DNA of 20,000 nt from an uncultured virus (IMG/VR IMGVR_UViG_3300045240_000158) (lineage: Duplodnaviria; Heunggongvirae; Uroviricota; Caudoviricetes), in the IMG/VR virus record IMGVR_UViG_3300045240_000158, one strand, 5' to 3'. Positions 1,954 to 15,484 of the stretch are shown here, piece by piece. A model generated the notes under the pieces. That model did no database searches. It was not told the origin of the DNA and was given only the letters and a program-made list of their open reading frames with translations. The position numbers and the translations under genes were made by a program. Each line of letters starts with the position of its first letter. The first letter of the stretch is position 1.

Positions 1954-2700
1954 TCAGGTATCCACGCCACGCGCACGCAGCTTCGCGAGGAGCTTGTCCG
2001 CAACTGCTGTCGGGATAGAACCCCCTCGCTCGTGCCGCACGGCGAAGGCGATGTCTTCGAGGCGCTCGTAGCCTTTCAGCGGCCTCCGCCCAGCGAGCAC
2101 GTCTTGCGCGTAGCGAACCAGCTCGCTGCCAACGCGCAGCGCTGACGACGCGTCCACCAGTACGGGTCCGCGCCCACGCGCCATCACATAGCTGTCCTCT
2201 TTGAATTCCGGCGAGAGCCAACCGTACGTCGACATCCCTTTGCGAATGTCTTTGTGGAGGCCGAACAGCTTGGAGGTTTGTGCCGGGGTGCCGCTCGGTC
2301 CGCGCACGCATTCGCGGATGAGGACATCGTGCTGCTTGTTGTAGCGCGTCCCGCGCGCCACGTGATCACGCACACCGGGCACCTGTGCGGCCTTCGTGAG
2401 CCACTCGGCCTCCTCGGCGACGGAGTCTTCGCGCCCGCGGCGGGCCACCTTGTAGGCGGTTTGGCGCTGGTCGCAGAACACGATGCCGCTCGCGCCTGCG
2501 CCTTGGTACTCCAGATCCCCGATAGCGCCCGCAGCTGCCGCGCGCTTCGCGGCCTCATCGAGCTCGTCGCCGAGCGCGTTCAGCGCGCGGGCAGAGATCT
2601 CGCCCCGGTTCGAGATCGTGGGCGTGTCCGACGGCTCCTTGGAGGCAAGAGCTTCTGCGATCTCACGATCGAGCTGGGCAGCCGTCTTCCTCTTGGCCAT
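1954..2700 (-). CDS. Protein-kinase-like fold protein, degenerate catalytic motifs, with N-terminal AAQLDREIAEAL tag
   Basis: Gly-rich loop GAGASGIV, AYKVAR Lys strand, helix-C Glu (EEAEWL), PEFKEDSY at catalytic-loop position, PVLVDAS at DFG position. Confidence 0.65.
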   Translation of the reverse strand: MAKRKTAAQLDREIAEALASKEPSDTPTISNRGEISARALNALGDELDEAAKRAAAAGAIGDLEYQGAGASGIVFCDQRQTAYKVARRGREDSVAEEAEWLTKAAQVPGVRDHVARGTRYNKQHDVLIRECVRGPSGTPAQTSKLFGLHKDIRKGMSTYGWLSPEFKEDSYVMARGRGPVLVDASSALRVGSELVRYAQDVLAGRRPLKGYERLEDIAFAVRHERGGSIPTAVADKLLAKLRARGVDT

Positions 2701-2744
2701 ACCCTATTCTACCGTTAGTCTCTGGGTGACCGCAGGGTACTGAA

Positions 2745-3014
2745 ATGAGCACAGCCTCGAAGGAACCGGAGCCGACCTACACACGCAGCTGCGAGGGCTA
2801 CGTCTACTTCGCTGACCAGGGTATCGAGGTCTGCGAGACGTGCGGCGGCTGCACGTGCTGCGATTACGACGACGTCGATCACCGCAAGGCTCGCTACCGG
2901 TGCCTGCTCGATCGCGAGGGCAAGAAATGTTTGCTCGGAAAGAGCAGCAAGCTCAACCACGACTGCGAGAGGGACCAGCAGCCGCGGCCTGTCGCTGAGG
3001 ACGCGAAGCCGTGA
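2745..3014 (+). CDS. Cys-rich hypothetical protein
   Basis: 89 aa, CETCGGCTCC and further Cys/His; GTGA overlap with next ORF. Confidence 0.7.
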   Translation: MSTASKEPEPTYTRSCEGYVYFADQGIEVCETCGGCTCCDYDDVDHRKARYRCLLDREGKKCLLGKSSKLNHDCERDQQPRPVAEDAKP

Positions 3015-3205
3015 ATGGTTGGCGCGTGTGGCTCGCATTTGAAGTGAAGCCAGGCGTCACGATCACTTCAACGCAGGACAAATCTGATCACTGGCGGGGG
3101 CTCGCGGAAGCGTGCAGAGGGGTAGACGGCTTGATCGACGCGCGCGATTTCGATCGTTGGCTGACGTGCCTCATCGAGCACGCCCACTTGTGGGGCGAGG
3201 CGTGA
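3011..3205 (+). CDS. Hypothetical protein
   Basis: 64 aa, 4-nt overlaps with both neighbours. Confidence 0.6.
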   Translation: MNGWRVWLAFEVKPGVTITSTQDKSDHWRGLAEACRGVDGLIDARDFDRWLTCLIEHAHLWGEA

Positions 3206-3615
3206 TCGCTCCCAGCAGGGTGATCGTCGAGCGTCTCTGGGAGCTGTATCCGTGGCCCGAGCGGAACCTCCCCATGCGCTCGATGACCGTCGAGAAGCTC
3301 ATGACGTACCCCTCGCAGCCCGTGTACGTGAGCGACGAGGCTCGGACCCGGAAGCAACCGACGCGCGCATGGGACTACGGTCGGATCCGCTTTTTTTACG
3401 AGCAGCTCGGCGCGGGTGTGACGCTCGATGCGATCGAGGTCGACAACGAGTGCGACTGGGGGCGGATCTATCCGATACCCGTCCTGCTCGACGGACACCA
3501 TCGGCTAGCGGCGTCGCGCCTCGCGCCCGCCCGGATCATACGCGTCAGCTACGGCGGGCGCCTCGATCTCTTGCGGTACCTCACCGGCGCGCGGAAGACG
3601 TGCCCGGCGGGGTAG
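3202..3615 (+). CDS. ParB/sulfiredoxin-like N-terminal domain protein
   Basis: LDAIEV...VLLDGHHRLAA signature; start reassigned to GTG 3202, overlapping the upstream stop. Confidence 0.7.
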   Translation: MIAPSRVIVERLWELYPWPERNLPMRSMTVEKLMTYPSQPVYVSDEARTRKQPTRAWDYGRIRFFYEQLGAGVTLDAIEVDNECDWGRIYPIPVLLDGHHRLAASRLAPARIIRVSYGGRLDLLRYLTGARKTCPAG

Positions 3616-3635
3616 GCGTCGACTTCACCTACCCT
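3610..3635. terminator. Stem-loop between convergent genes
   Basis: GGGTAGG...CCTACCC inverted repeat spanning the stops at 3615 (+) and 3625 (-); no U-tract. Confidence 0.35.
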
Positions 3636-3831
3636 CAGCGACGACGATGAGGAAGTTGATCGCAGCGCGCTGCGCGGACGTGATGCCGTCTCGTCGAGCG
3701 TAGTGCCGCGCGATCCCAACGAGAGTCAGCCACTCGACGCTGGCAGCTTCGTCGGTGTTTGGCGCGTTGATGACGATCGATGGCGTGGGGCCTTCGTCGC
3801 TGTAGAGCGTAACTTTGATCGATGCGGTCAC
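3625..3831 (-). CDS. Hypothetical protein
   Basis: 68 aa, ATGA overlap with upstream ORF. Confidence 0.6.
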   Translation of the reverse strand: MTASIKVTLYSDEGPTPSIVINAPNTDEAASVEWLTLVGIARHYARRDGITSAQRAAINFLIVVAEGR

Positions 3832-4184
3832 TTGTCATACCCCTTGATCCCGAGAAGCTTCGCGGTGCCCGCCGGGCACCAGACCTCGACCTTGACGAAC
3901 GTTCCGTGGAACATGACGACCTCGCCACGCGTTTCCGCCGCCTTCCAGTCGACGATCAGCCTGAGCGCGAGGTCCTTGAGCGCCGAGTGGATCTTGCGCT
4001 CGGCCTCGACGATCTCGCTGACGCGAGGCGATGCCGGGGTGAGGAAGGCGATCAGCTCGCGGTCCCACCAGATCTTGGGGCTCGGGTCCGTGAACCGTCC
4101 CGATGGCGGTCGGCCATCGAGGCGCTCGATGCGGACGCGGATGCCCTCATGCCCGGCGAGGTCGACGTACTTGTCCTTTGCCAC
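3828..4184 (-). CDS. Hypothetical protein
   Basis: Start reassigned to GTG 4184 after SD GGAGGAGG; GC3-biased codons. Confidence 0.7.
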   Translation of the reverse strand: MAKDKYVDLAGHEGIRVRIERLDGRPPSGRFTDPSPKIWWDRELIAFLTPASPRVSEIVEAERKIHSALKDLALRLIVDWKAAETRGEVVMFHGTFVKVEVWCPAGTAKLLGIKGYDK

Positions 4185-4186
4185 GA

Positions 4187-4375
4187 CTACGCCTCCTCCG
4201 ACCACGCGATGATCTCGCGGCGTGCGGCGCGGCGCGCGGCCTTCTTGGGCGCCCGCCGCGAGGCATCGCGATCGAAGCGCGCGCCACGCGAGGCGTGCTT
4301 CGACTGAACCGCCCAGCGCGTGGGGCCGGGGCAGCAGTCCACCGGAGCTCTCATCTTGTGCCCGTACGCCTTCAT
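4187..4375 (-). CDS. Small basic protein (MKAYG...CCPG...KKAARRAARREI)
   Basis: 62-aa Arg/Lys-rich ORF from ATG 4375, directly downstream of the leftward promoter module. Confidence 0.6.
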   Translation of the reverse strand: MKAYGHKMRAPVDCCPGPTRWAVQSKHASRGARFDRDASRRAPKKAARRAARREIIAWSEEA

Positions 4376-4457
4376 GCTTCTACCGTAGATACAGGGAGCG
4401 TGCCGCTTCGGAAGTAGTGTAAGTGCACTCGGAGCGATAGTGGGTAGATTGCTACCC
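4376..4457 (-). promoter_or_regulatory. Promoter module copy C: GGGTA-N6-TACCC palindrome plus sigma54-like element
   Basis: Palindrome 4442-4457; 37 nt further on the - strand CGGCACGCTCCCTGTA (4405-4390, GT in place of the -12 GC); ATG at 4375. Confidence 0.45.
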
Positions 4458-4555
4458 GTCTCTGGAGGTTCCCACAGCTCGAGGTCAGGGGCTCGAGGCG
4501 TCGACGGGTTCCGGCGCAGGTTCCCAGTGCGTGACGCCAGAAGACACCTCCTGCT

Positions 4556-4571
4556 GGGTAGCTGGAGACCC
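4556..4571. promoter_or_regulatory. Additional palindromic site GGGTA-N6-GACCC
   Basis: GGGTAGCTGGAGACCC, one mismatch to the motif, in the same intergenic region. Confidence 0.45.
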
Positions 4572-4630
4572 GGTATCTGCCACGCCACTCGGGCTTGTCG
4601 TCGAGGCCTGCCACGTGAAGCTCGAGACAC

Positions 4631-4714
4631 GGGTGCCCGATTACCCAGGCTCAGCGATCAAGATCTTGCGAGCCAGCCGGCTCGGGCACGCTGCCCGCAA
4701 TACCCGGGTTCATC
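4631..4714 (+). promoter_or_regulatory. Promoter module copy A: palindrome, IHF-like site, sigma54-like -24/-12
   Basis: GGGTG-N6-TACCC 4631-4646; GATCAAGATCTTG 4656-4668 (IHF consensus WATCAANNNNTTR); GGGCACGCTGCCCGCA 4684-4699 (GG-N10-GC); ATG at 4715. Confidence 0.55.
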
Positions 4715-4981
4715 ATGCAGTCTCTCGCACTGACCGCCGACCAGGCGGCCCTCCTCGAAGCGACCGCGACCGCACCCGCCGCCCCGTCGCTCACCGACGA
4801 CGACGCGCTGATGTCGATGCCGCTCGCCGAGGCCAAGCACCTCGTCGCGGCCAAGTTCGAGCGCCGCTACCTCGTTCGCGTCATGGATCGGGCGGGTGGA
4901 TCGGTCTCCGAGGGCGCGCGCGTGGCGGGTATCGATCGCACCAACTTCCGCCGCCTGCTCCAGCGGCACGGGCTCCGCTAG
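4715..4981 (+). CDS. Stand-alone Fis-type helix-turn-helix protein resembling the C-terminal DNA-binding domain of sigma54 enhancer-binding proteins
   Basis: PLAEAKHLVAAKFERRYLVRVMDRAGGSVSEGARVAGIDRTNFRRLLQRHGL fits the FERxYL...GxVSxxARxAGIDR..xxxLLxxHGL pattern; no AAA+ or receiver domain. Confidence 0.88.
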   Translation: MQSLALTADQAALLEATATAPAAPSLTDDDALMSMPLAEAKHLVAAKFERRYLVRVMDRAGGSVSEGARVAGIDRTNFRRLLQRHGLR

Positions 4982-4983
4982 CC

Positions 4984-5244
4984 GTGAGTTACGCCGACAA
5001 GAAGCAGCTCGTCGCGAGCATCGAGCACTGGGAGCGCCTGGCAACCGAAGCGGAGGAGCAGGCCAAGTGGAACCGCGACCATGGGCGCGATCTCTCCAAT
5101 CCCGGGGGCTCCGCTGGCGATTATCAGGCCCAGACCTTTCGCCGCACGGCGGAGGCGCTCCGCCGCGAGCTTGCAACCGGGCGGCCTCACTGCTCGACCT
5201 GCCTCGGCGATCACCCCAACCACCAGCACCCGCATCGCGGGTGA
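4984..5244 (+). CDS. Hypothetical protein with C-terminal Cys/His cluster
   Basis: Start reassigned to GTG 4984; HCSTCLGDHPNHQH. Confidence 0.7.
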   Translation: MSYADKKQLVASIEHWERLATEAEEQAKWNRDHGRDLSNPGGSAGDYQAQTFRRTAEALRRELATGRPHCSTCLGDHPNHQHPHRG

Positions 5245-5259
5245 TCTCGGAGAACCGCG

Positions 5260-5529
5260 ATGAAGATCAACGTCACCATACAGCACGGCACGTGCGTCGT
5301 GCGCCTCGACGCACTCACGATGGAGAATCACGAGCGCGAGGTCTGGATCGTGTTCGCGACGTGCGTCATCGCGGCCGATCATGTCATCCCGTCGAGCGAG
5401 ACCTTCGGAGCGTTTCCACACGAACCCGCGCTCTTGTTTCCGCCGGCCTACGCTGACGCGTTCGTGGCCGAGTTTCGCTCGCTGACCCATGACTGGACGA
5501 TGCCGGTACAGATCACGGAGACACCATGA
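5260..5529 (+). CDS. Hypothetical protein
   Basis: SD GGAG upstream; ATGA overlap with next ORF. Confidence 0.7.
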   Translation: MKINVTIQHGTCVVRLDALTMENHEREVWIVFATCVIAADHVIPSSETFGAFPHEPALLFPPAYADAFVAEFRSLTHDWTMPVQITETP

Positions 5530-5885
5530 AAGACACCAAGAAAGACACGCTCGGACTGTCCGCCACCGACAAGACGCCCAAGCCCAGCGGCTGGGGCTTC
5601 GACTTCCCGCACACCGATCCGCAGCGCCGCGTTCCATGCGTTCTCGGCGACATGCTCTGCCCGCGCAGCGCGGACGACATCCCGCCGATCACGCCCAAGG
5701 CGATGGCCTCGGTGCAGGCCGCGATCGCGCTGCTCGCAAACCTCGTTGCTGATCGCGACCACAACCTGTTCCTTGCCTACGGTGATCGTCAGGCAGAGAT
5801 GGTCGGCAAGGCACGCGACATCTTGCTCGTCGCCAAGGGGCTCGCGGGGATCCTCCGCGTCGTCTCGCAGAAGGAGTCGCCGTGA
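5526..5885 (+). CDS. Hypothetical protein
   Basis: 119 aa, coupled to both neighbours. Confidence 0.7.
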   Translation: MKDTKKDTLGLSATDKTPKPSGWGFDFPHTDPQRRVPCVLGDMLCPRSADDIPPITPKAMASVQAAIALLANLVADRDHNLFLAYGDRQAEMVGKARDILLVAKGLAGILRVVSQKESP

Positions 5886-6076
5886 TTCGGGCTATCGCGA
5901 TCATCGAGGTCGGCGCCTTCCGCATCTTGACGTGCCCGGCCAACCCCGAGATGGAAGGCATCTTGTTCGCCACGCCTCGCGCGGCTGGACGCTTGCGCCT
6001 CGGTCAGTACACCGTCGTGAAGTTCTGCCCGAACGACCAGTTCGCCTACGAGTGCCAGGAGGCCCTCCAGCCATGA
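5882..6076 (+). CDS. Hypothetical protein
   Basis: 64 aa, SD AAGGAG, coupled to both neighbours. Confidence 0.65.
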   Translation: MIRAIAIIEVGAFRILTCPANPEMEGILFATPRAAGRLRLGQYTVVKFCPNDQFAYECQEALQP

Positions 6077-6402
6077 ACCGCTACACCCCCATCGTCGACG
6101 ACGTCGACGAGACCGCTGTCACCGGGAGCTTCGCGCGCCTCGATCCCGACGCCACCTCGTCCTACGACATCCACGACATCGATACTGCGCCGATTCGGCA
6201 CATCGGCCGCTCGCAGAACGACATCGACACCGCGCCGATTCGGCACATCGGCCGCTCGCAGAACGTCGCGGTTCGTCGCCGCCAGATCCGCGATACCCGC
6301 GAGAACCTCCTGCGTCTCCGCGAGGCGCTCGCGGCGGGCTGGGACATCAGCCACGAGCTGGCGCACGAGGAGCGCTGCCTCGCGGAGCTGGAGGCCATCT
6401 GA
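6073..6402 (+). CDS. Hypothetical protein with internal 15-aa duplication
   Basis: Start reassigned to ATG 6073 (SD GGAGG); DIDTAPIRHIGRSQN twice. Confidence 0.7.
   Translation: MNRYTPIVDDVDETAVTGSFARLDPDATSSYDIHDIDTAPIRHIGRSQNDIDTAPIRHIGRSQNVAVRRRQIRDTRENLLRLREALAAGWDISHELAHEERCLAELEAI
6175..6264 (+). repeat. 45-nt tandem duplication
   Basis: 6175-6219 and 6220-6264 differ at two synonymous positions only. Confidence 0.95.
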
Positions 6403-6734
6403 TGAAGACGCTCGATCCGACGTGGTGGCGTCGGCACAGTAGCGGCGAGTTCTACGAGCAGCAGAACGATGCTGCACGGCTCGTGAAGCGTCGTACGGGC
6501 CGTCGCGTGACGGCGTGGATTCTCTACATCAGCGGCGAGTACCGCGGCGAATGGTCGACGCTTGCCGAGGCCAAGGAGCAAGCGAAGGAGATCACGAGCC
6601 GCGTTGCACACGGTCTGCACCCCGAGCCCGGACCCCACTGTGTGCGGTGCAGCAAGCGCCTCACGCCGGCCGAGGTAGCGTCGCAGCTTCCCGACCACGA
6701 CGAGTTCTGTGACGGCTGCCTAGAGAAGTCATGA
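6402..6734 (+). CDS. Hypothetical protein with C-terminal zinc-ribbon-like motif
   Basis: HCVRC...FCDGC; SD GGAGG. Confidence 0.75.
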   Translation: MKTLDPTWWRRHSSGEFYEQQNDAARLVKRRTGRRVTAWILYISGEYRGEWSTLAEAKEQAKEITSRVAHGLHPEPGPHCVRCSKRLTPAEVASQLPDHDEFCDGCLEKS

Positions 6735-6958
6735 GCGAAAGAGATCACGGTATGACCAAGCACTGGATCATCAAGAACCACCACGACGAGTTCCTGATCG
6801 GCTTCTTCGCGAACGGCAGGGCGCGCTGGCGTACGTCAGACGAGCCGATCGTGGGTTCGGAGGCCCTCGTCTACTCGACCGAGGACCTCACCCGCGTCGC
6901 TATCCCGGCGCTGGCGAATGCCGGCGTCGATGTCTTCACCGTCGAGCGTTACAGCTAG
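6731..6958 (+). CDS. Hypothetical protein
   Basis: 75 aa, ATGA overlap, GC3 bias. Confidence 0.7.
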   Translation: MSERDHGMTKHWIIKNHHDEFLIGFFANGRARWRTSDEPIVGSEALVYSTEDLTRVAIPALANAGVDVFTVERYS

Positions 6959-6969
6959 CCGAAGCCCTC

Positions 6970-7305
6970 ATGACCAACATCAAACGCCATGTCATCCCTG
7001 ATCCGTACCCCGAGACGGTCGGGGCCACTGCCCTGACGATCTATATCCCCGAGGACTTCCGCGGCGATGCCGAGGTCATCTGGTGGCGGCCCGGCAAGAG
7101 CGCCGACAAGGACAAGCAGCGCATCACGTGTAGCGCATCCGCGTTGCTCCAGGGCGTGTTTCGCGACCTCCGCGGCTCTCATCCGGGCGAGCTGTTCTAC
7201 CCACGCATCGTCGCGCTCGTGCTCCACACGTTCTATCGCGCGCGGATCGAGGCGGCGGCACGTCCGGACGAATGGCAGCCCTACTCGCTGGAGCCCCTGA
7301 AGTGA
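6970..7305 (+). CDS. Hypothetical protein
   Basis: 111 aa, GC3 bias, coupled to next ORF. Confidence 0.7.
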   Translation: MTNIKRHVIPDPYPETVGATALTIYIPEDFRGDAEVIWWRPGKSADKDKQRITCSASALLQGVFRDLRGSHPGELFYPRIVALVLHTFYRARIEAAARPDEWQPYSLEPLK

Positions 7306-7832
7306 TGGACGAAGATCTGCTCAACCGCGCGCTGCCGAAGTGGCCTCAGATGATCGTCACCGGGTCGCGCCTTCGCGAAGATCTCGCGCTGGAGGTCATC
7401 CGGCGTACCGATTCGTGGTTCGTGTCTGGATCCGGCTGCAATGATCACGACGGTGATCGCCGCCTCGCGCGGCGCTTCCGCATGCCGCACTACCACGATC
7501 GCAGCTGGCGCGCCCCCGACGGCTACGACTGGCGGGCGCACTACGATCGCGAGCAGCGCTGGAAGGAGGCGTGGGGTGCGGTCGAGACCCAGTACGTGCA
7601 CAACCACTGGATCGGATCGTCCTTCATCCACGGTCCGCACGGCTGGTGTCACCCCGATGGTCAGATCTACTACATCGACAACGTCGGCAAGTGGCCCTCC
7701 ATCGAGGACATCCTCGCCGACTGGCGAACGCCTCGCGCCAGTATCATCGTTTCGATACGGGTAGCTTCTTACCCAGGGCTTTGTAATCGCGGACTTGACG
7801 CCCGCGAGGCCTGGTGCGCTACTCGCATCTAA
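7305..7832 (+). CDS. Trp/His/Gly-rich hypothetical protein, probably 3'-truncated near 7730
   Basis: PKWPQMIVTG...GPHGWCHPDG...NVGKWPSIEDILADW; after about 7730 codon bias is lost and the frame runs through promoter module B. Confidence 0.65.
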   Translation: MDEDLLNRALPKWPQMIVTGSRLREDLALEVIRRTDSWFVSGSGCNDHDGDRRLARRFRMPHYHDRSWRAPDGYDWRAHYDREQRWKEAWGAVETQYVHNHWIGSSFIHGPHGWCHPDGQIYYIDNVGKWPSIEDILADWRTPRASIIVSIRVASYPGLCNRGLDAREAWCATRI

Positions 7833-7840
7833 GAGCCCTC
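7759..7840 (+). promoter_or_regulatory. Promoter module copy B: palindrome, weak IHF-like site, sigma54-like -24/-12
   Basis: GGGTA-N6-TACCC 7759-7774; AATCGCGGACTTG 7785-7797; TGGTGCGCTACTCGCA 7812-7827; same 38-nt spacing as copy A; ATG at 7841. Confidence 0.55.
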
Positions 7841-8236
7841 ATGACGACGAGCACCGAGCGCCGCGACTTCACCCACGGTTTCGACAAGCTTTTCACAGTG
7901 ACGCTGTGGGGGTCCAACCCCGACGAGACCGACAACGACGATTGCTGGACCGGTGACGACTACGCGACGCGCGAGGAGGCGATCGCCGCCTACCGCGAGG
8001 TCGTGATGTTCCCCGATCACAGCCAGATCGCGAAAGTGTGCGGTCGCGGCGGCTGGGAGTACGTCATGATCGACGGCCCCGAGACGCACGAGGTCACGCA
8101 GAACCCCGATCGTCCGTCGTGCGATCGTCACCGCCGCGAGCTGGCGCGTAGCGATCGCGAGTGGCAGCGCGAGCGCGCGATGGAGGCCGGCATGCTCCAC
8201 GGCGTCGAGGCGTACAACGACGAGATGGCACAATGA
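7841..8236 (+). CDS. Acidic hypothetical protein
   Basis: Start reassigned to ATG 7841; LWGSNPD..NDDCWTGDD...EWQRERAMEAGMLHGVEAYND; strong GC3 bias. Confidence 0.8.
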   Translation: MTTSTERRDFTHGFDKLFTVTLWGSNPDETDNDDCWTGDDYATREEAIAAYREVVMFPDHSQIAKVCGRGGWEYVMIDGPETHEVTQNPDRPSCDRHRRELARSDREWQRERAMEAGMLHGVEAYNDEMAQ

Positions 8237-9192
8237 TCAAGACACCGGCTGCTCAGCTGGATCGTGAAATTGCCGAAGCGTTGAGCGGCTCAGGATCCGC
8301 GACGTTCACGGTTGCCGATCGATTCATGCGTGCCATCAACCGCAGCAACCTATCGGATTCACGCATCGCGCACACCCAACGGGCACTCGACGTGATCCTG
8401 CATGGGAAGCTCGACGGCATGATCTACGGCCCGGAGTACAAGGACGCGAAGGACACCCTGAGTCGCCGATTCGACGACGCGTACAGCGCGCTCCGATCGC
8501 CGTACATGACCGGAAAGGGGCTCACGCCGGACAGTGAATGGGAGGACAAGCTCGGATCGACCTACGGACTGCACAGTGCGATCTCTGTCGCCAAGCGGCT
8601 CGCTAAGCTACCGCCTGCGCCAACGCCGCAGTTCGATCAAGAGGTCCGCGAGTTCTTCGCTGCCACCCAACCGATCGCCGTCATGATCGCCGACCTCAAG
8701 TCCAAGGTGATCAAGGGACGCAAACCGAACCCCGACGTTGTCGCGAAGAAGGCCGCTGTGGCAGCCTCACGCGTTGGTCGTGACGGGGAGTGCCAGATCT
8801 GCCAGCGTCGGCACATCCTTGACAGCCGGGGAAACCTCGTACTGCACGGCTACCAGCGCCCAGGCCACGGCTACATCGTCGGTGATTGCTTCGGCGTGGG
8901 ACACCCGCCCTGGGAGGTGTCGAGCGACGCGCTGGCGACATGGATCGAGCAGCTCAAGGCGCAATCGGGGCAGCTCGCTCAAGAAGCAGATCGGACCACC
9001 AAGCTCACGACAATCAACGTCAACCGCGGCTCAGAGAGGAATCCGAAAATCGTGACGCTGACCAAGGACAGTCCCAGTTTCGTGGGTGAGATCGAGAAGC
9101 GCGTGCGTGCCCTCAAGCAGCAGTCCAAGTGGCTCGCCGACGACGCGACGACTGCGACCCGGCGCCTGAAGACGTGGAAGCCGGCATCATGA
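8233..9192 (+). CDS. Hypothetical protein with N-terminal AAQLDREIAEAL tag and CxxC-H-C metal-binding domain
   Basis: Start at ATG 8233 (ATGA overlap); GECQICQR...LHGYQRPGHGYIVGDCFG followed by predicted coiled coil. Confidence 0.8.
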   Translation: MIKTPAAQLDREIAEALSGSGSATFTVADRFMRAINRSNLSDSRIAHTQRALDVILHGKLDGMIYGPEYKDAKDTLSRRFDDAYSALRSPYMTGKGLTPDSEWEDKLGSTYGLHSAISVAKRLAKLPPAPTPQFDQEVREFFAATQPIAVMIADLKSKVIKGRKPNPDVVAKKAAVAASRVGRDGECQICQRRHILDSRGNLVLHGYQRPGHGYIVGDCFGVGHPPWEVSSDALATWIEQLKAQSGQLAQEADRTTKLTTINVNRGSERNPKIVTLTKDSPSFVGEIEKRVRALKQQSKWLADDATTATRRLKTWKPAS

Positions 9193-9890
9193 CACCCGCA
9201 AAGACCGACAAGCTCGCCGGCACGTGCAGCGTCTGCCTGCGCACGATGCAGCTCCACGGGGACCACCCGATCCGCCACGGTTTCTCCGCGGTCGACGTAC
9301 GCCACGGGCAGCACAGCGGCTACCACACAGGCCCCTGCCAGGGCACGCGCTTCCCGCACCTGGGGATCTCGCCCGAGGGCACGAAGTGGGCGCTCGACAA
9401 CGCACGCGATCGACTGACCTCTGTCGAGACCGAGCTTGCCCGCCTCGCCGGTAACCCTGACCTCACGTGGTACCCGGACACGTTCGTCAGGGGTCGTCCG
9501 ATGAGGGATCCGACGCGCCCGGTCAAGCTTCGTTACGGCGAAGACGTCGCCTATGCGGGCGATGGCCGACCCACGTACGCGTGGGAGCACAAGCGCCAGG
9601 TCACCCGCCAGGAGGACATCAAGAAGGAGCTGGAGAGGGCGATCGGCGCCTACGAGAAGGTGATCGAGACCTGGGCCCCGGGAAAGTACCCGACGACCGG
9701 CGCGGCCCAGAAGGTCGAGACCACGCACATGGCGACGCCACGCAAGAACAGCCGCGGCGAGGAGTGGACCGGCGTGCTTTGCCGCTTCACGAGGAAGGGT
9801 TTCGCGTCGGACAAGATCGTGAAGACCGATGACCCGAGCAAGGTCACCTGTAAGAAGTGTCGCAAGGATCTGGGGCTGCCTCCGCTGTGA
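9189..9890 (+). CDS. Hypothetical protein with CxxC-H-C domain paralogous to the upstream gene, plus C-terminal Cys/His cluster
   Basis: Start at ATG 9189; GTCSVCLR...RHGF...GYHTGPCQG; C-terminal H..C..VTCKKC. Confidence 0.8.
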   Translation: MTPAKTDKLAGTCSVCLRTMQLHGDHPIRHGFSAVDVRHGQHSGYHTGPCQGTRFPHLGISPEGTKWALDNARDRLTSVETELARLAGNPDLTWYPDTFVRGRPMRDPTRPVKLRYGEDVAYAGDGRPTYAWEHKRQVTRQEDIKKELERAIGAYEKVIETWAPGKYPTTGAAQKVETTHMATPRKNSRGEEWTGVLCRFTRKGFASDKIVKTDDPSKVTCKKCRKDLGLPPL

Positions 9891-10108
9891 CGACGAAGCG
9901 CAAGAAGACGCCGTTTCGCGTCGGTGATCGAGTCGTCCGCAACAAGGCCGTCGGCTCAGCTGGAGCGGCTGGTGATGTCGTCGGCACGATCGTCAAGGTG
10001 ACGCCCGTGAAGGCCGGCTCGGGCGGCACCCGCGCACGGATCCGGGTTCACTGGGACAACGGCTACGAAGGATCCGTCGAAGATCGTCAGCTTGTGCGGG
10101 CGATCTAG
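9887..10108 (+). CDS. Small SH3/KOW-like beta-barrel protein
   Basis: FRVGDRVV...GTIVKV...IRVHWDNG...L pattern; GTGA overlap at 9887. Confidence 0.65.
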   Translation: MTTKRKKTPFRVGDRVVRNKAVGSAGAAGDVVGTIVKVTPVKAGSGGTRARIRVHWDNGYEGSVEDRQLVRAI

Positions 10109-10635
10109 ACGACCCCGACGGTCGCCGACACGTCCAGCGGAATCGCGATCGTGTTGGAGCTGACCTCCACATCGAACGTGTCGCCGATCGCGTACGCCAC
10201 CGGCCCCGCCAGCGCGGTCTTGATGCCGGTTTGTCCTCCGGTGTACGTGGTGACGAACCCAGGAACCGCCACGCCGTTCTTGAGCAGCGTGATCGTGAGT
10301 ACGCCGTCGATCGAGACGGTTTCCAGCACGTTGGTGGCGAAGTTGACCAAGCTGCGCGCGATCGCGACAGGGTAATCCGGGGGCGTCGCGATGACAGGCA
10401 CGAGGCCCACACCGACACCCGTGTCAGCCAAGTAGCTGACCACGATACCTTCCACACCAGGCGCGGCTACGCCGGAGAATTTGAGAAGCCCGCCCCCACC
10501 TGGAGCTCCAGCAGGTCCAGTAGGTCCCGTCGGGCCACGATGGCCACGCTTGCCGCGCTTGCCTCGCTCGCCGCGCTCTCCGCCGTCGCCATCGTCTGAC
10601 GTGCAATCAGGAAGGTTGATCTTGATGTCGGCCAT
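10105..10635 (-). CDS. Collagen-like protein with beta-rich C-terminal domain (possible virion surface protein)
   Basis: GERGERGKRGKRGHRGPTGPTGPAGAP = 9 Gly-X-Y triplets followed by a Val/Thr/Gly-rich globular domain. Confidence 0.8.
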   Translation of the reverse strand: MADIKINLPDCTSDDGDGGERGERGKRGKRGHRGPTGPTGPAGAPGGGGLLKFSGVAAPGVEGIVVSYLADTGVGVGLVPVIATPPDYPVAIARSLVNFATNVLETVSIDGVLTITLLKNGVAVPGFVTTYTGGQTGIKTALAGPVAYAIGDTFDVEVSSNTIAIPLDVSATVGVV

Positions 10636-14289: not shown

Positions 14290-15150
14290 TCACGCTCCAC
14301 GTCCTGCCACGTAGCGCGCCCGCGGCTTACCCTGACCGAGCAAGACCCGCTGGTACTTGTCGGTCTCGCACAAGATGTTTGGGACGTCCGAGAAGTCCAT
14401 GGCGACGCCCGTCTCCTGCTCCACGAGAGCGTAGATCGCGCTCATCTCCTGACGCGCCTGAGGCTGTGAGAGGGACGCATCCACGGGACGTTCGTGCAGT
14501 CGGTTGAGCCCGCGAATCGTTCCCGGTCCCGCCGCGGCCCAGGACAACGCGTCGGCTGCGCTGGAGAGTAGTGACGTGAAACGCATGTCGACGACGGCCT
14601 GATAGGCCAAGAAGTCACCCCATCCAAAGGAGCTGGTGATCCGAGCGTGAACCCCCTCAAGCGTCGCACCAGACCAGTCGGTGAATTCGGCGCGGCGGCG
14701 CCAGAGATCGCCGACCACCGTGCCGGCGATGTGCCTTTGCTTGTCTGCGCCGCGGTCATGCGGTGCCGGGATCATGTACGCGCCCGTGTACACCTTATCG
14801 CCGCGTGCCTTGCGCGCGTTGAGCGCGTCCCCCATCGCGATCGGCGAGAAGTCATCGCCGATGGGCCACGCGCCCGGGGCGGCGATCAGCTCCGCTAGCG
14901 TGTCAGGCCAGTTGATCTGGCGCGCCGCGCAGAGCATGAGCCATAGGTACGGATGACCCGCGAAACGATCGCGGATGTGCTGGCGGACCCAGATCGTCAC
15001 ACGATCGTCTTCGCGACGCACGCAACAGAAACGGTAGTCGCGGAGGATCGGATCGGCCGTCCAAGGGAAGGGCTCACCCCGCTCCTTGCGCAGGCGGATC
15101 GCCTCGCGCTCACGGACCCAGCGCCAAAGTGGTGTGTAGTTCGGCGTCAT
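14290..15150 (-). CDS. Amino acid:DNA transferase (aGPT-Pplase1-like, HhH-glycosylase fold), thymidine hypermodification enzyme
   Basis: PWTADPILRDYRFCCVRREDDRVT, YTGAYMI, GWGDFLAYQAVVD, GPGTIRGL, LCETDKY; start at ATG 15150 preferred. Confidence 0.85.
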   Translation of the reverse strand: MTPNYTPLWRWVREREAIRLRKERGEPFPWTADPILRDYRFCCVRREDDRVTIWVRQHIRDRFAGHPYLWLMLCAARQINWPDTLAELIAAPGAWPIGDDFSPIAMGDALNARKARGDKVYTGAYMIPAPHDRGADKQRHIAGTVVGDLWRRRAEFTDWSGATLEGVHARITSSFGWGDFLAYQAVVDMRFTSLLSSAADALSWAAAGPGTIRGLNRLHERPVDASLSQPQARQEMSAIYALVEQETGVAMDFSDVPNILCETDKYQRVLLGQGKPRARYVAGRGA

Positions 15151-15157
15151 CTGCTGG

Positions 15158-15484
15158 TCACGGTGAAGGCTCTTCGACGGCAATCTTCTTGAACGTTACA
15201 GCGCGCGACGGTACGAGCCCGACGTCCGGCTCCCAGATGAAGCTGATCTCGCCGCACACGAAGACGCGCTCTGGGGCGACGCCGCACGTACACGAGAAGC
15301 ACAAGGGACACGAGTCCCGACGGTGATCGTCACACGGGATGCTGATCCACGATCGGGTAGCGATCCGCAGACGGCATTCGATCGCATGATGATCGACGAA
15401 GCACGCACAGGGTGTCACCGGCCCGAAGGCATCGTCCTGGCGGATGATGTTGCACTTCGAGCAGAAACCGACCTCGGTCGTCAT
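15158..15484 (-). CDS. Cys-rich hypothetical protein
   Basis: Start at ATG 15484 (SD GGAGG); CSKC, CAC..HH..C, C..H..CPLC..CTC. Confidence 0.7.
   Translation of the reverse strand: MTTEVGFCSKCNIIRQDDAFGPVTPCACFVDHHAIECRLRIATRSWISIPCDDHRRDSCPLCFSCTCGVAPERVFVCGEISFIWEPDVGLVPSRAVTFKKIAVEEPSP

Follow-up and report, generated by a model that had tools for sequence, protein, structure and literature searches.

This locus raises the question of why two proteins of one virus should carry, close to their N-termini, the same short peptide. Within the window (the whole stretch of 20,000 nucleotides analysed here), AAQLDREIAEAL is encoded twice and exactly, at 2682-2647 on the minus strand (residues 7-18 of a kinase-like protein) and at 8248-8283 on the plus strand (residues 6-17 of a CxxC-H-C protein), and six-frame translation of the window offers no better further match to this tag than one scoring 29 versus 54, with 6/12 identical residues. 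The two copies differ in seven of their 12 codons, by eight bases, and every change is synonymous, which bears out the proposal of the sequence-only reading that conservation acts at the peptide level and does not reflect a recent DNA duplication. The other shared peptides of at least 12 aa in the window all come from a 45-nt DNA duplication at 6175-6264. Outside the tag the two proteins are unlike each other, as had also been claimed, with a best alignment of 15.8 bits and an E of 1.1. Copy 1 was recovered unchanged in contigs from the independent runs X2 and X3, and copy 2 in a contig from the independent run X4.

The start codons assumed upstream of both tags are supported by their surroundings. 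A -10-like hexamer, TAGAAT (2706..2711, minus strand), ends 5 nt before the ATG at 2700 and fixes the start of the kinase-like ORF, which probably yields a leaderless transcript if the hexamer functions as its sequence suggests. Between this start and copy 1 lies a basic lead-in, M-A-K-R-K-T (2683..2700, minus strand), which corresponds to K-K-[ST] in the consensus of the lineage. In the case of the CxxC-H-C protein, an ATGA start/stop overlap (8233..8236, plus strand) with the ORF at 7814-8236 supports the ATG at 8233. By contrast, there is no conserved Ser-containing linker behind the tag, as had been thought: the lineage has A, S, G or R at the position that follows.

The first of these proteins, a truncated protein-kinase-like protein of 248 aa (1954..2700, minus strand), was assigned from sequence features and language-model neighbours. 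It keeps GxGxxG, K84, E97 and D183, together with an atypical loop, E165-x-K167-x-x-S170, and its nearest neighbours by language model are OspG, T7 and PolyVal kinases (0.94). It gave no match in Pfam, PHROG or NCBIfam, nothing in the PDB better than E 0.016, no family match among cultured phages and, as a single query in IMG/VR, no relative. The second, of 319 aa (8233..9192, plus strand), belongs to phrog_11549, a family also present in untagged form in phiCbK-like and Serratia phages.

Outside the window, a 21-position profile (E<=0.001), seeded on the same metagenome loci that were counted, found the tag in 536 protein clusters. It sits on metagenomic contigs of 59-72% GC and up to about 500 kb, which represent very large viruses of an uncultured lineage from soils and sediments. 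The scored loci hold 79 tags on 56 cargo clusters, once 15 matches judged by eye to be chance (scores 20-37, overlapping the weakest matches kept) and seven duplicates had been removed, and one locus of 5.3 kb contains ten tagged genes, ParB-like and ART-like cargo included. IMG/VR returned no locus for the exact motif, 19 for a loose pattern (none with the basic lead-in among the matches listed), six for a GC-biased pattern (one of them true) and 15 matches to HATKK[ST]P, none of them tagged. Among the 185,579 species genomes of GTDB, 43 pattern matches included a single true tag, on a 5.4-kb contig holding the only two matches in its bin. The best hit in cultured phages had an E of 7, plasmids gave none, and the open literature yielded no paper naming QLDREIAEAL. 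Loose versions of such a motif do arise by chance in helices, as judged for 8/61 scoring metagenome loci and 7/8 scoring GTDB loci; even so, with 536 clusters, ten copies in one locus and both window copies found again in independent runs, chance or an assembly artefact may be regarded as already refuted. That the tag is a portable, peptide-level element on unrelated proteins, as first suggested from the two copies, is thus strongly supported throughout the lineage.

The scan of relatives did reveal further N-terminal copies, many of them directly after the start codon, so the N-terminal placement originally ascribed to the tag stands for many proteins. As a general description it is too narrow, since 108 of 153 tags in the top matches are internal and seven C-terminal (a ranking that favours internal copies), and 20 and nine, respectively, of the 79 tags in the loci. 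The fuller unit reads R-(H/S)-H-A-T-K-K-S-P-A-QLDREIAEAL, and its H-[A/S]-T element behaves as a junction in its own right. H[AS]T occurs 149 times, compared with 8.8 in shuffles (maximum 19), a 17-fold enrichment, and 75 of these occurrences have no tag following. H[AS][TR] precedes 76/108 internal tags, with a spacing to the Gln that is almost invariably 8-9 residues, whereas HAT lies within 25 aa downstream of just 27/153 tags. Internal homology ends lie no more than 10 aa from HAT or the tag in 109 of 157 cases, versus 49 expected at random (maximum 64), showing that domains of about 80 aa have been recombined into small polyproteins at H-[A/S]-T junctions. Each of the 54 module families with more than one member has several partners, a count partly built in because the representatives are <50% identical, and the clustering of homology ends is therefore the evidence relied upon. 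An x-R-E junction seen in G002-G004 was dropped, as it showed no genome-wide enrichment.

This clustering might indicate that the repeat is kept mainly as an island of DNA homology for cassette recombination, the peptide being a tolerated linker. Three central codons are indeed skewed relative to background (CTC 0.74/0.48, GAT 0.59/0.34 and CGC 0.76/0.46). However, codon use within the tag is near background overall, the 79 tags are 79 different DNA sequences encoding 54 peptides, and pairwise codon differences comprise 12,518 synonymous versus 7,037 non-synonymous. Moreover, every copy kept is in frame in a plausible gene, often right after the start codon, and the window copies themselves diverge in most codons. 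Such a role seems very unlikely, recombination at the tag being more probably a by-product than what is selected for.

The tagged proteins also have features in common as a set. From the best 150 profile matches, two resembling translated CRISPR arrays were removed; none of the remaining 148 proteins exceeds 398 aa, none has a membrane segment, and 139 are net basic, with a median of +9. As many as 140/150 lack a Pfam match and no MuF or portal domain was matched among the 150. Where domains were found, PARP and SprT scored above the cut-off and ART-PolyVal and ParB_N below it, kinases being assigned by language-model features alone, and variable combinations from this ART, kinase, ParB and peptidase pool concern a minority of the cargo. 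Three features would suit a DNA-binding or self-associating core element, in which the K-K stretch and the helix let these proteins coat the genome and enter the particle along with it, with no specific receptor groove involved: the basic charge, a doubled tag in 19/76 of the closest kinase relatives, and the resemblance of the tag to nothing in the PDB but designed coiled coils (E>=0.012). On the other hand, eleven residues make a short stretch for a stable coiled coil, and the near-invariant Q, D, R and E of the polar face suggest one specific contact surface, making this alternative improbable. The hydrophobic moment of the tag is borderline, 5.5% of shuffles reaching its value.

Most likely, the tag addresses proteins to one shared viral partner, which is probably the assembling particle. 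In the mechanism that we slightly favour, the tag is a docking helix loading effector mini-domains into the virion, with HAT as the probable processing site. The helix would dock by its L/I/L face into a single groove of a common assembly partner, be it the scaffold, the core or the inner wall of the capsid, and would thereby bring effector domains that are small, basic and soluble (kinase-like, ADP-ribosyltransferase-like, ParB-like and many of unknown type) into the particle, to be delivered together with the DNA. With less confidence, a viral protease may cut HAT, separating the domains both from one another and from the tag; cleavage at H-A-T would leave ends resembling the M-(A/T)-K-K with which N-terminal tags start.

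Short, position-free helices are typical docking motifs, and the partner might also lie outside the particle: a viral replication compartment or hub protein, RNA polymerase or another host machine, a chaperone, or a protease adaptor, in which last case the tag would act as a degron. Counting against loading into the particle, the window copies lack HAT and are surrounded by non-structural genes. A TAnnnT hexamer 4-8 nt upstream of the start in 14/47 N-terminal tags (0-3 in five control windows) suits transcription by the host polymerase and not a late head operon, and in cultured phages the relatives of the CxxC-H-C protein (phiCbK gp233, Serratia phage Kevin) have small hypothetical genes, not those of the head, as neighbours. 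Against this, HAT junctions and the polyprotein layout fit maturation processing, and the same cargo gains other leaders elsewhere: seven of 33 distant CxxC relatives start with MK and an acidic-hydrophobic stretch, which we take to resemble the T4 leader, and further relatives bear RRNP or hydrophobic leaders. The tag is also effectively absent from cellular genomes, and so is not a copy of a common host motif. A partner outside the particle therefore seems rather unlikely.

Loading into the particle would have several parallels. The capsid-targeting sequence (CTS) of phage T4 is, according to PMC5694885, a short peptide common to unrelated small proteins, ADP-ribosyltransferase-type cargo included, and portable to foreign proteins, and the tag is likewise a short peptide common to unrelated proteins of one phage lineage. 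In T4 internal proteins and Alt, this sequence is an N-terminal propeptide of 10-20 aa cut after Glu by the prohead protease gp21, whereas the tag is also internal or C-terminal, spans hundreds of families, has a separate HAT junction and lacks a conserved Glu: that of I-A-E is retained in just 43/79 tags, which makes T4-type cleavage within it unlikely. Under the slightly favoured reading, the two would be alike in how they work but apparently not homologous. The head propeptides of SPN3US and phiKZ also combine identical termini on diverged proteins (the N-terminal 15 residues of SPN3US gp53 and gp54, again from PMC5694885) with repeated three-residue motifs, theirs being A/S-x-E; gp53 and gp54, however, are paralogues with long propeptides, while the tag has unrelated cargo and the motif H-A/S-T, and no phiKZ-type protease was found in the few kb per contig of tagged loci scanned. 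In polyvalent proteins, according to Iyer et al. 2017 (PMC5512222), ART, ParB, metallopeptidase-type and truncated kinase domains are shuffled in a similar way; these proteins are virion-linked and proposed to be delivered with the DNA. They are described there as large, with 2-15 domains, and as fused to MuF or portal domains that anchor them; the tagged proteins reach at most 398 aa, and a short peptide would be their anchor. A last parallel is adenovirus, where, according to bioRxiv 10.1101/857581, short peptides of the basic proteins VI and VII compete for one cavity of the jelly-roll hexon and are released by maturation. It is an analogy only, between a eukaryotic virus with two fixed proteins and a lineage known from metagenomic contigs.

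A candidate for cutting HAT is a transglutaminase-like putative Cys protease adjoining tagged genes in three loci. It has G-D-C-D plus a later His, matches Pfam transglutaminase below the cut-off (E 0.0064) and matches PDB 4u65, presumably LapG, at E 0.001 with a profile that included a distant untagged member; both queries with it in IMG/VR found no relative. Neither an HK97-fold head nor a gp21-like protease appeared among the tagged-locus ORFs scanned (few kb per contig). A capsid-like candidate was seen in G004, an untagged virus with the same kinase cargo; its jelly-roll leads are weak (0.85-0.86, Z<=4.1) and its alignment fold (pLDDT 58) gave no clear structural match; among 120 of its 375 relatives inspected by eye, none was tied to a tagged contig. 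Another untagged virus, G005, encodes a PHROG major head protein. Searches of the open literature found neither jelly-rolls with transglutaminase or with Myxococcota, nor DUF6496 with phage. Taken further, and still unlikely, the lineage might be one of bacterial viruses that lack a tail, contain a membrane and reach genome sizes of about 500 kb, in which a position-free helix docks in a pocket inside the particle, HAT is cut by a transglutaminase-fold maturation protease, and dozens of effector mini-domains per genome, shuffled at the tag, are co-packaged and released on entry. Were this two-part grammar true, the injected proteome could be read from sequence.

Under the alternative explanations as well, the tag marks a lineage rare in the viral contig collection (one tagged contig) and common in raw metagenomes. 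H-A-T is proposed as a new three-residue processing motif. If the tag does load cargo, capsid targeting would no longer mean a fixed N-terminal propeptide only, but also a module free of position that doubles as the hinge of domain shuffling. The delivered proteins of an uncultured giant-virus lineage could then be listed on sequence alone, in at least 536 protein clusters, nearly all unannotated, which would be likely effectors of host takeover or counter-defence.

Both copies of the QLDREIAEAL peptide with its flanks were confirmed in the window, at 2647..2682 (− strand) and 8248..8283 (+ strand), on a kinase-like protein (1954..2700, −, 248 aa) and a CxxC-H-C protein (8233..9192, +, 319 aa) that are unrelated outside the tag (E 1.1). 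As the sequence-only reading had noted, seven of the twelve codons differ between the copies, every one synonymously. The next-best match to the peptide inside the window has only 6/12 identities. Both translation starts are supported, one by a TAGAAT hexamer ending 5 nt upstream of ATG 2700 and the other by the overlap of ATG 8233 with the stop of the upstream ORF. A −10-like hexamer in the same placement as at ATG 2700 stands before 14 of the 47 tags at N-termini; control windows gave 0-3. Both tags are present without change in independent soil sequencing runs. Elsewhere in the window, a direct duplication of 45 nt (6175-6264) doubles a 15-aa peptide; the source-run assembly breaks there, and a short contig at this point has about twofold depth.

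The tag extends well beyond these two genes. Its loose form occurs in 72 of the 76 closest kinase-like relatives (19 with two copies) versus 3 of the 33 others (n=109), a stricter profile finds it in 53 of the 109, and 26 of 64 CxxC relatives carry it, all within the closest 31. A DNA-pattern scan of metagenomes gave at least 124 loci, 61 of them scoring; once 8 had been discarded as chance and 6 as duplicates, 47 were retained among the matches listed (GC 59-72%). When the window and a single contig each from GTDB and IMG/VR are added, the set holds at least 79 tags on 56 cargo clusters, with ten tags on consecutive small genes within 5.3 kb in locus L022. The proposed portability on unrelated proteins is thus strongly supported, with at least 56 cargo clusters, whereas the restriction to N-termini is not: 49 tags are N-terminal, but 20 lie internally, 9 are C-terminal and 1 is ambiguous. 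A 21-position profile search of 1.84 billion representatives placed the tag in 536 protein clusters (E≤0.001); two matches, P0186 and P0316, look like translations of CRISPR-like repeat arrays in a frame that mimics the tag.

A second motif, the H-[A/S]-T junction (HAT), is enriched in the tagged proteins. In 148 true top profile matches, H[AS]T occurs 149 times versus 8.8 in shuffles, and this enrichment is not a profile artefact because 75 of the 149 copies have no tag after them. Of the 108 internal tags, 76 have an H[AS][TR] site ahead of them, in nearly every case 8-9 residues upstream of the Gln, the fuller unit being R-(H/S)-H-A-T-K-K-S-P-A-QLDREIAEAL. The two copies in the window have no HAT; H/G/Y-[AS]-T is found in the first 70 aa of 42/53 tagged kinase-like and 16/26 tagged CxxC relatives. 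Three untagged viruses sharing the kinase cargo show no HAT enrichment (1-3 copies each). Proteins are laid out as domain-HAT-tag-domain-HAT-domain, with a median module of 81 aa. When proteins were compared without masking, 109 of the 157 homology ends inside them lay no more than 10 aa from a HAT or tag (random 49, maximum 64); P0180, for example, matches P0189 in its front half and P0198 in its back half. A recombination island, to which such ends might also be ascribed, is a very improbable reading of the tag. Among the matches listed, no two of the 79 DNA copies are identical and 54 peptides are encoded; synonymous differences exceed non-synonymous ones, and codon use is close to background apart from three skewed central codons: selection acts on the peptide. 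Q, I, L, D, R, E and the final L are conserved at 90% or more. The L-I-L spacing suits a single helical face, as in the amphipathic helix proposed earlier, although the hydrophobic moment is only borderline (5.5% of shuffles reach the tag's value).

The cargo is diverse. In the best 150 of the 536 profile matches, Pfam gave no domain for 140, DUF6496 in five and SprT in one. DUF6496 recurs as a tagged module (P0235, P0238, P0292, P0299, P0311; L056:2751-3791), and no paper in the literature search pairs it with phage. L022 includes PARP/ART-PolyVal-like and ParB-like domains. By language-model features (0.94), the kinase-like protein lies near OspG, T7 and PolyVal kinases; 106 of 109 relatives have the loop E-x-K-x-x-S instead of the canonical D-x-K-x-x-N, which suggests that the family may be an atypical kinase, a pseudokinase or of other chemistry. 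Host-like genes adjoin tagged genes in L084, L092, L066 and L024, one being IF-3 and others presumably DnaJ-like (two loci) and TROVE-like. Tagged proteins are small, basic and without membrane segments. A DNA-coating or self-associating element, with which the basic charge would agree, is a quite unlikely reading of the tag. In other lineages the same cargo takes other leaders, RRNP or hydrophobic segments, and 7 of 33 distant CxxC relatives have an MK-acidic-hydrophobic start, which we take to resemble the T4 leader. Cultured CxxC relatives sit among small hypothetical genes, which counts against a virion role; that the tag docks cargo on a non-virion hub or acts as a degron is nonetheless unlikely.

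Somewhat more probable than its negation is that the tag is a docking helix, which would bind a single shared assembly partner and so bring effector mini-domains into the particle, HAT being a processing site. Cleavage at HAT would produce (A)T-K-K termini resembling the M-(A/T/P)-K-K sequences with which N-terminally tagged proteins begin. As the HAT-cutting protease we infer a candidate, the product of a transglutaminase-like gene adjoining tagged genes in L065, L088 and L097, with a G-D-C-D motif and weak similarity to both Transglut_core and PDB 4u65. In L088 (550-2058, +) a LAGLIDADG intein splits this gene next to the Cys of the G-D-C motif, which suggests that the putative enzyme is essential. 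The tag would work much like the capsid-targeting sequence of T4 and the N-termini that SPN3US gp53 and gp54 have in common (PMC5694885); however, these are strictly N-terminal and have a conserved Glu site, and the tag is not classed with them because it lacks both features. Adenovirus VI and VII, which share a hexon pocket (10.1101/857581), offer an analogy only. The domain types of polyvalent proteins (ART, kinase, ParB; PMC5512222) match those of tagged cargo.

With regard to the virus type, tagged loci contain membrane-protein and spike-like genes, and no capsid gene was seen among their scanned ORFs (few kb per contig). In the untagged 117-kb virus G004, which shares the kinase cargo, a transglutaminase-like gene lies close to that for a conserved, unannotated capsid-like protein of 431 aa (L199:5641-6936, +; 375 relatives, contigs up to 252 kb) with only weak jelly-roll leads. 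The N-terminal peptide of this protein recurs in L198:18338-18979, and its gene comes after one for a basic repeat protein of 1,112 aa that has hydrophobic segments. Since a second untagged virus with the kinase cargo encodes a major head protein of conventional type, a tailless, jelly-roll identity of the tagged lineage is a lead and not a result, and its combination with a HAT-cutting protease is rather unlikely.

The window is part of a 137.5-kb contig, which points to a virus through a 5-hmdU DNA kinase helical domain (14290-15183, −, E 7e-44), so that thymidine hypermodification is probable, and through a short collagen tail-fibre-like protein (10105-10635, −), two relatives of which adjoin a tagged gene in L026. 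A VWA-domain protein (431-1945, +) adjoins the kinase-like gene and is also present in the close relative L077. The untagged ORF directly after the CxxC-H-C gene (9189-9890, +) has a similar, weakly matching arrangement (E 0.022), and possibly represents a paralogue and internal control. A stand-alone Fis-like HTH protein (4715-4981, +), which we take to resemble Myxococcota regulator tails, and one Myxococcota bin label on an untagged relative are the only hints of a Myxococcota host.

The QLDREIAEAL motif does not occur in the literature searched, and tag and HAT constitute a real, lineage-wide motif system, apparently undescribed so far. Contigs that carry tagged proteins include some of 202, 333, 461, about 410 and about 502 kb; the tag was not found in 50,697 cultured-phage records or 72,556 plasmids, and appears on only one 5.4-kb contig in 185,579 species genomes. 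This distribution indicates that the tag is a marker of a single lineage of very large, uncultured viruses.
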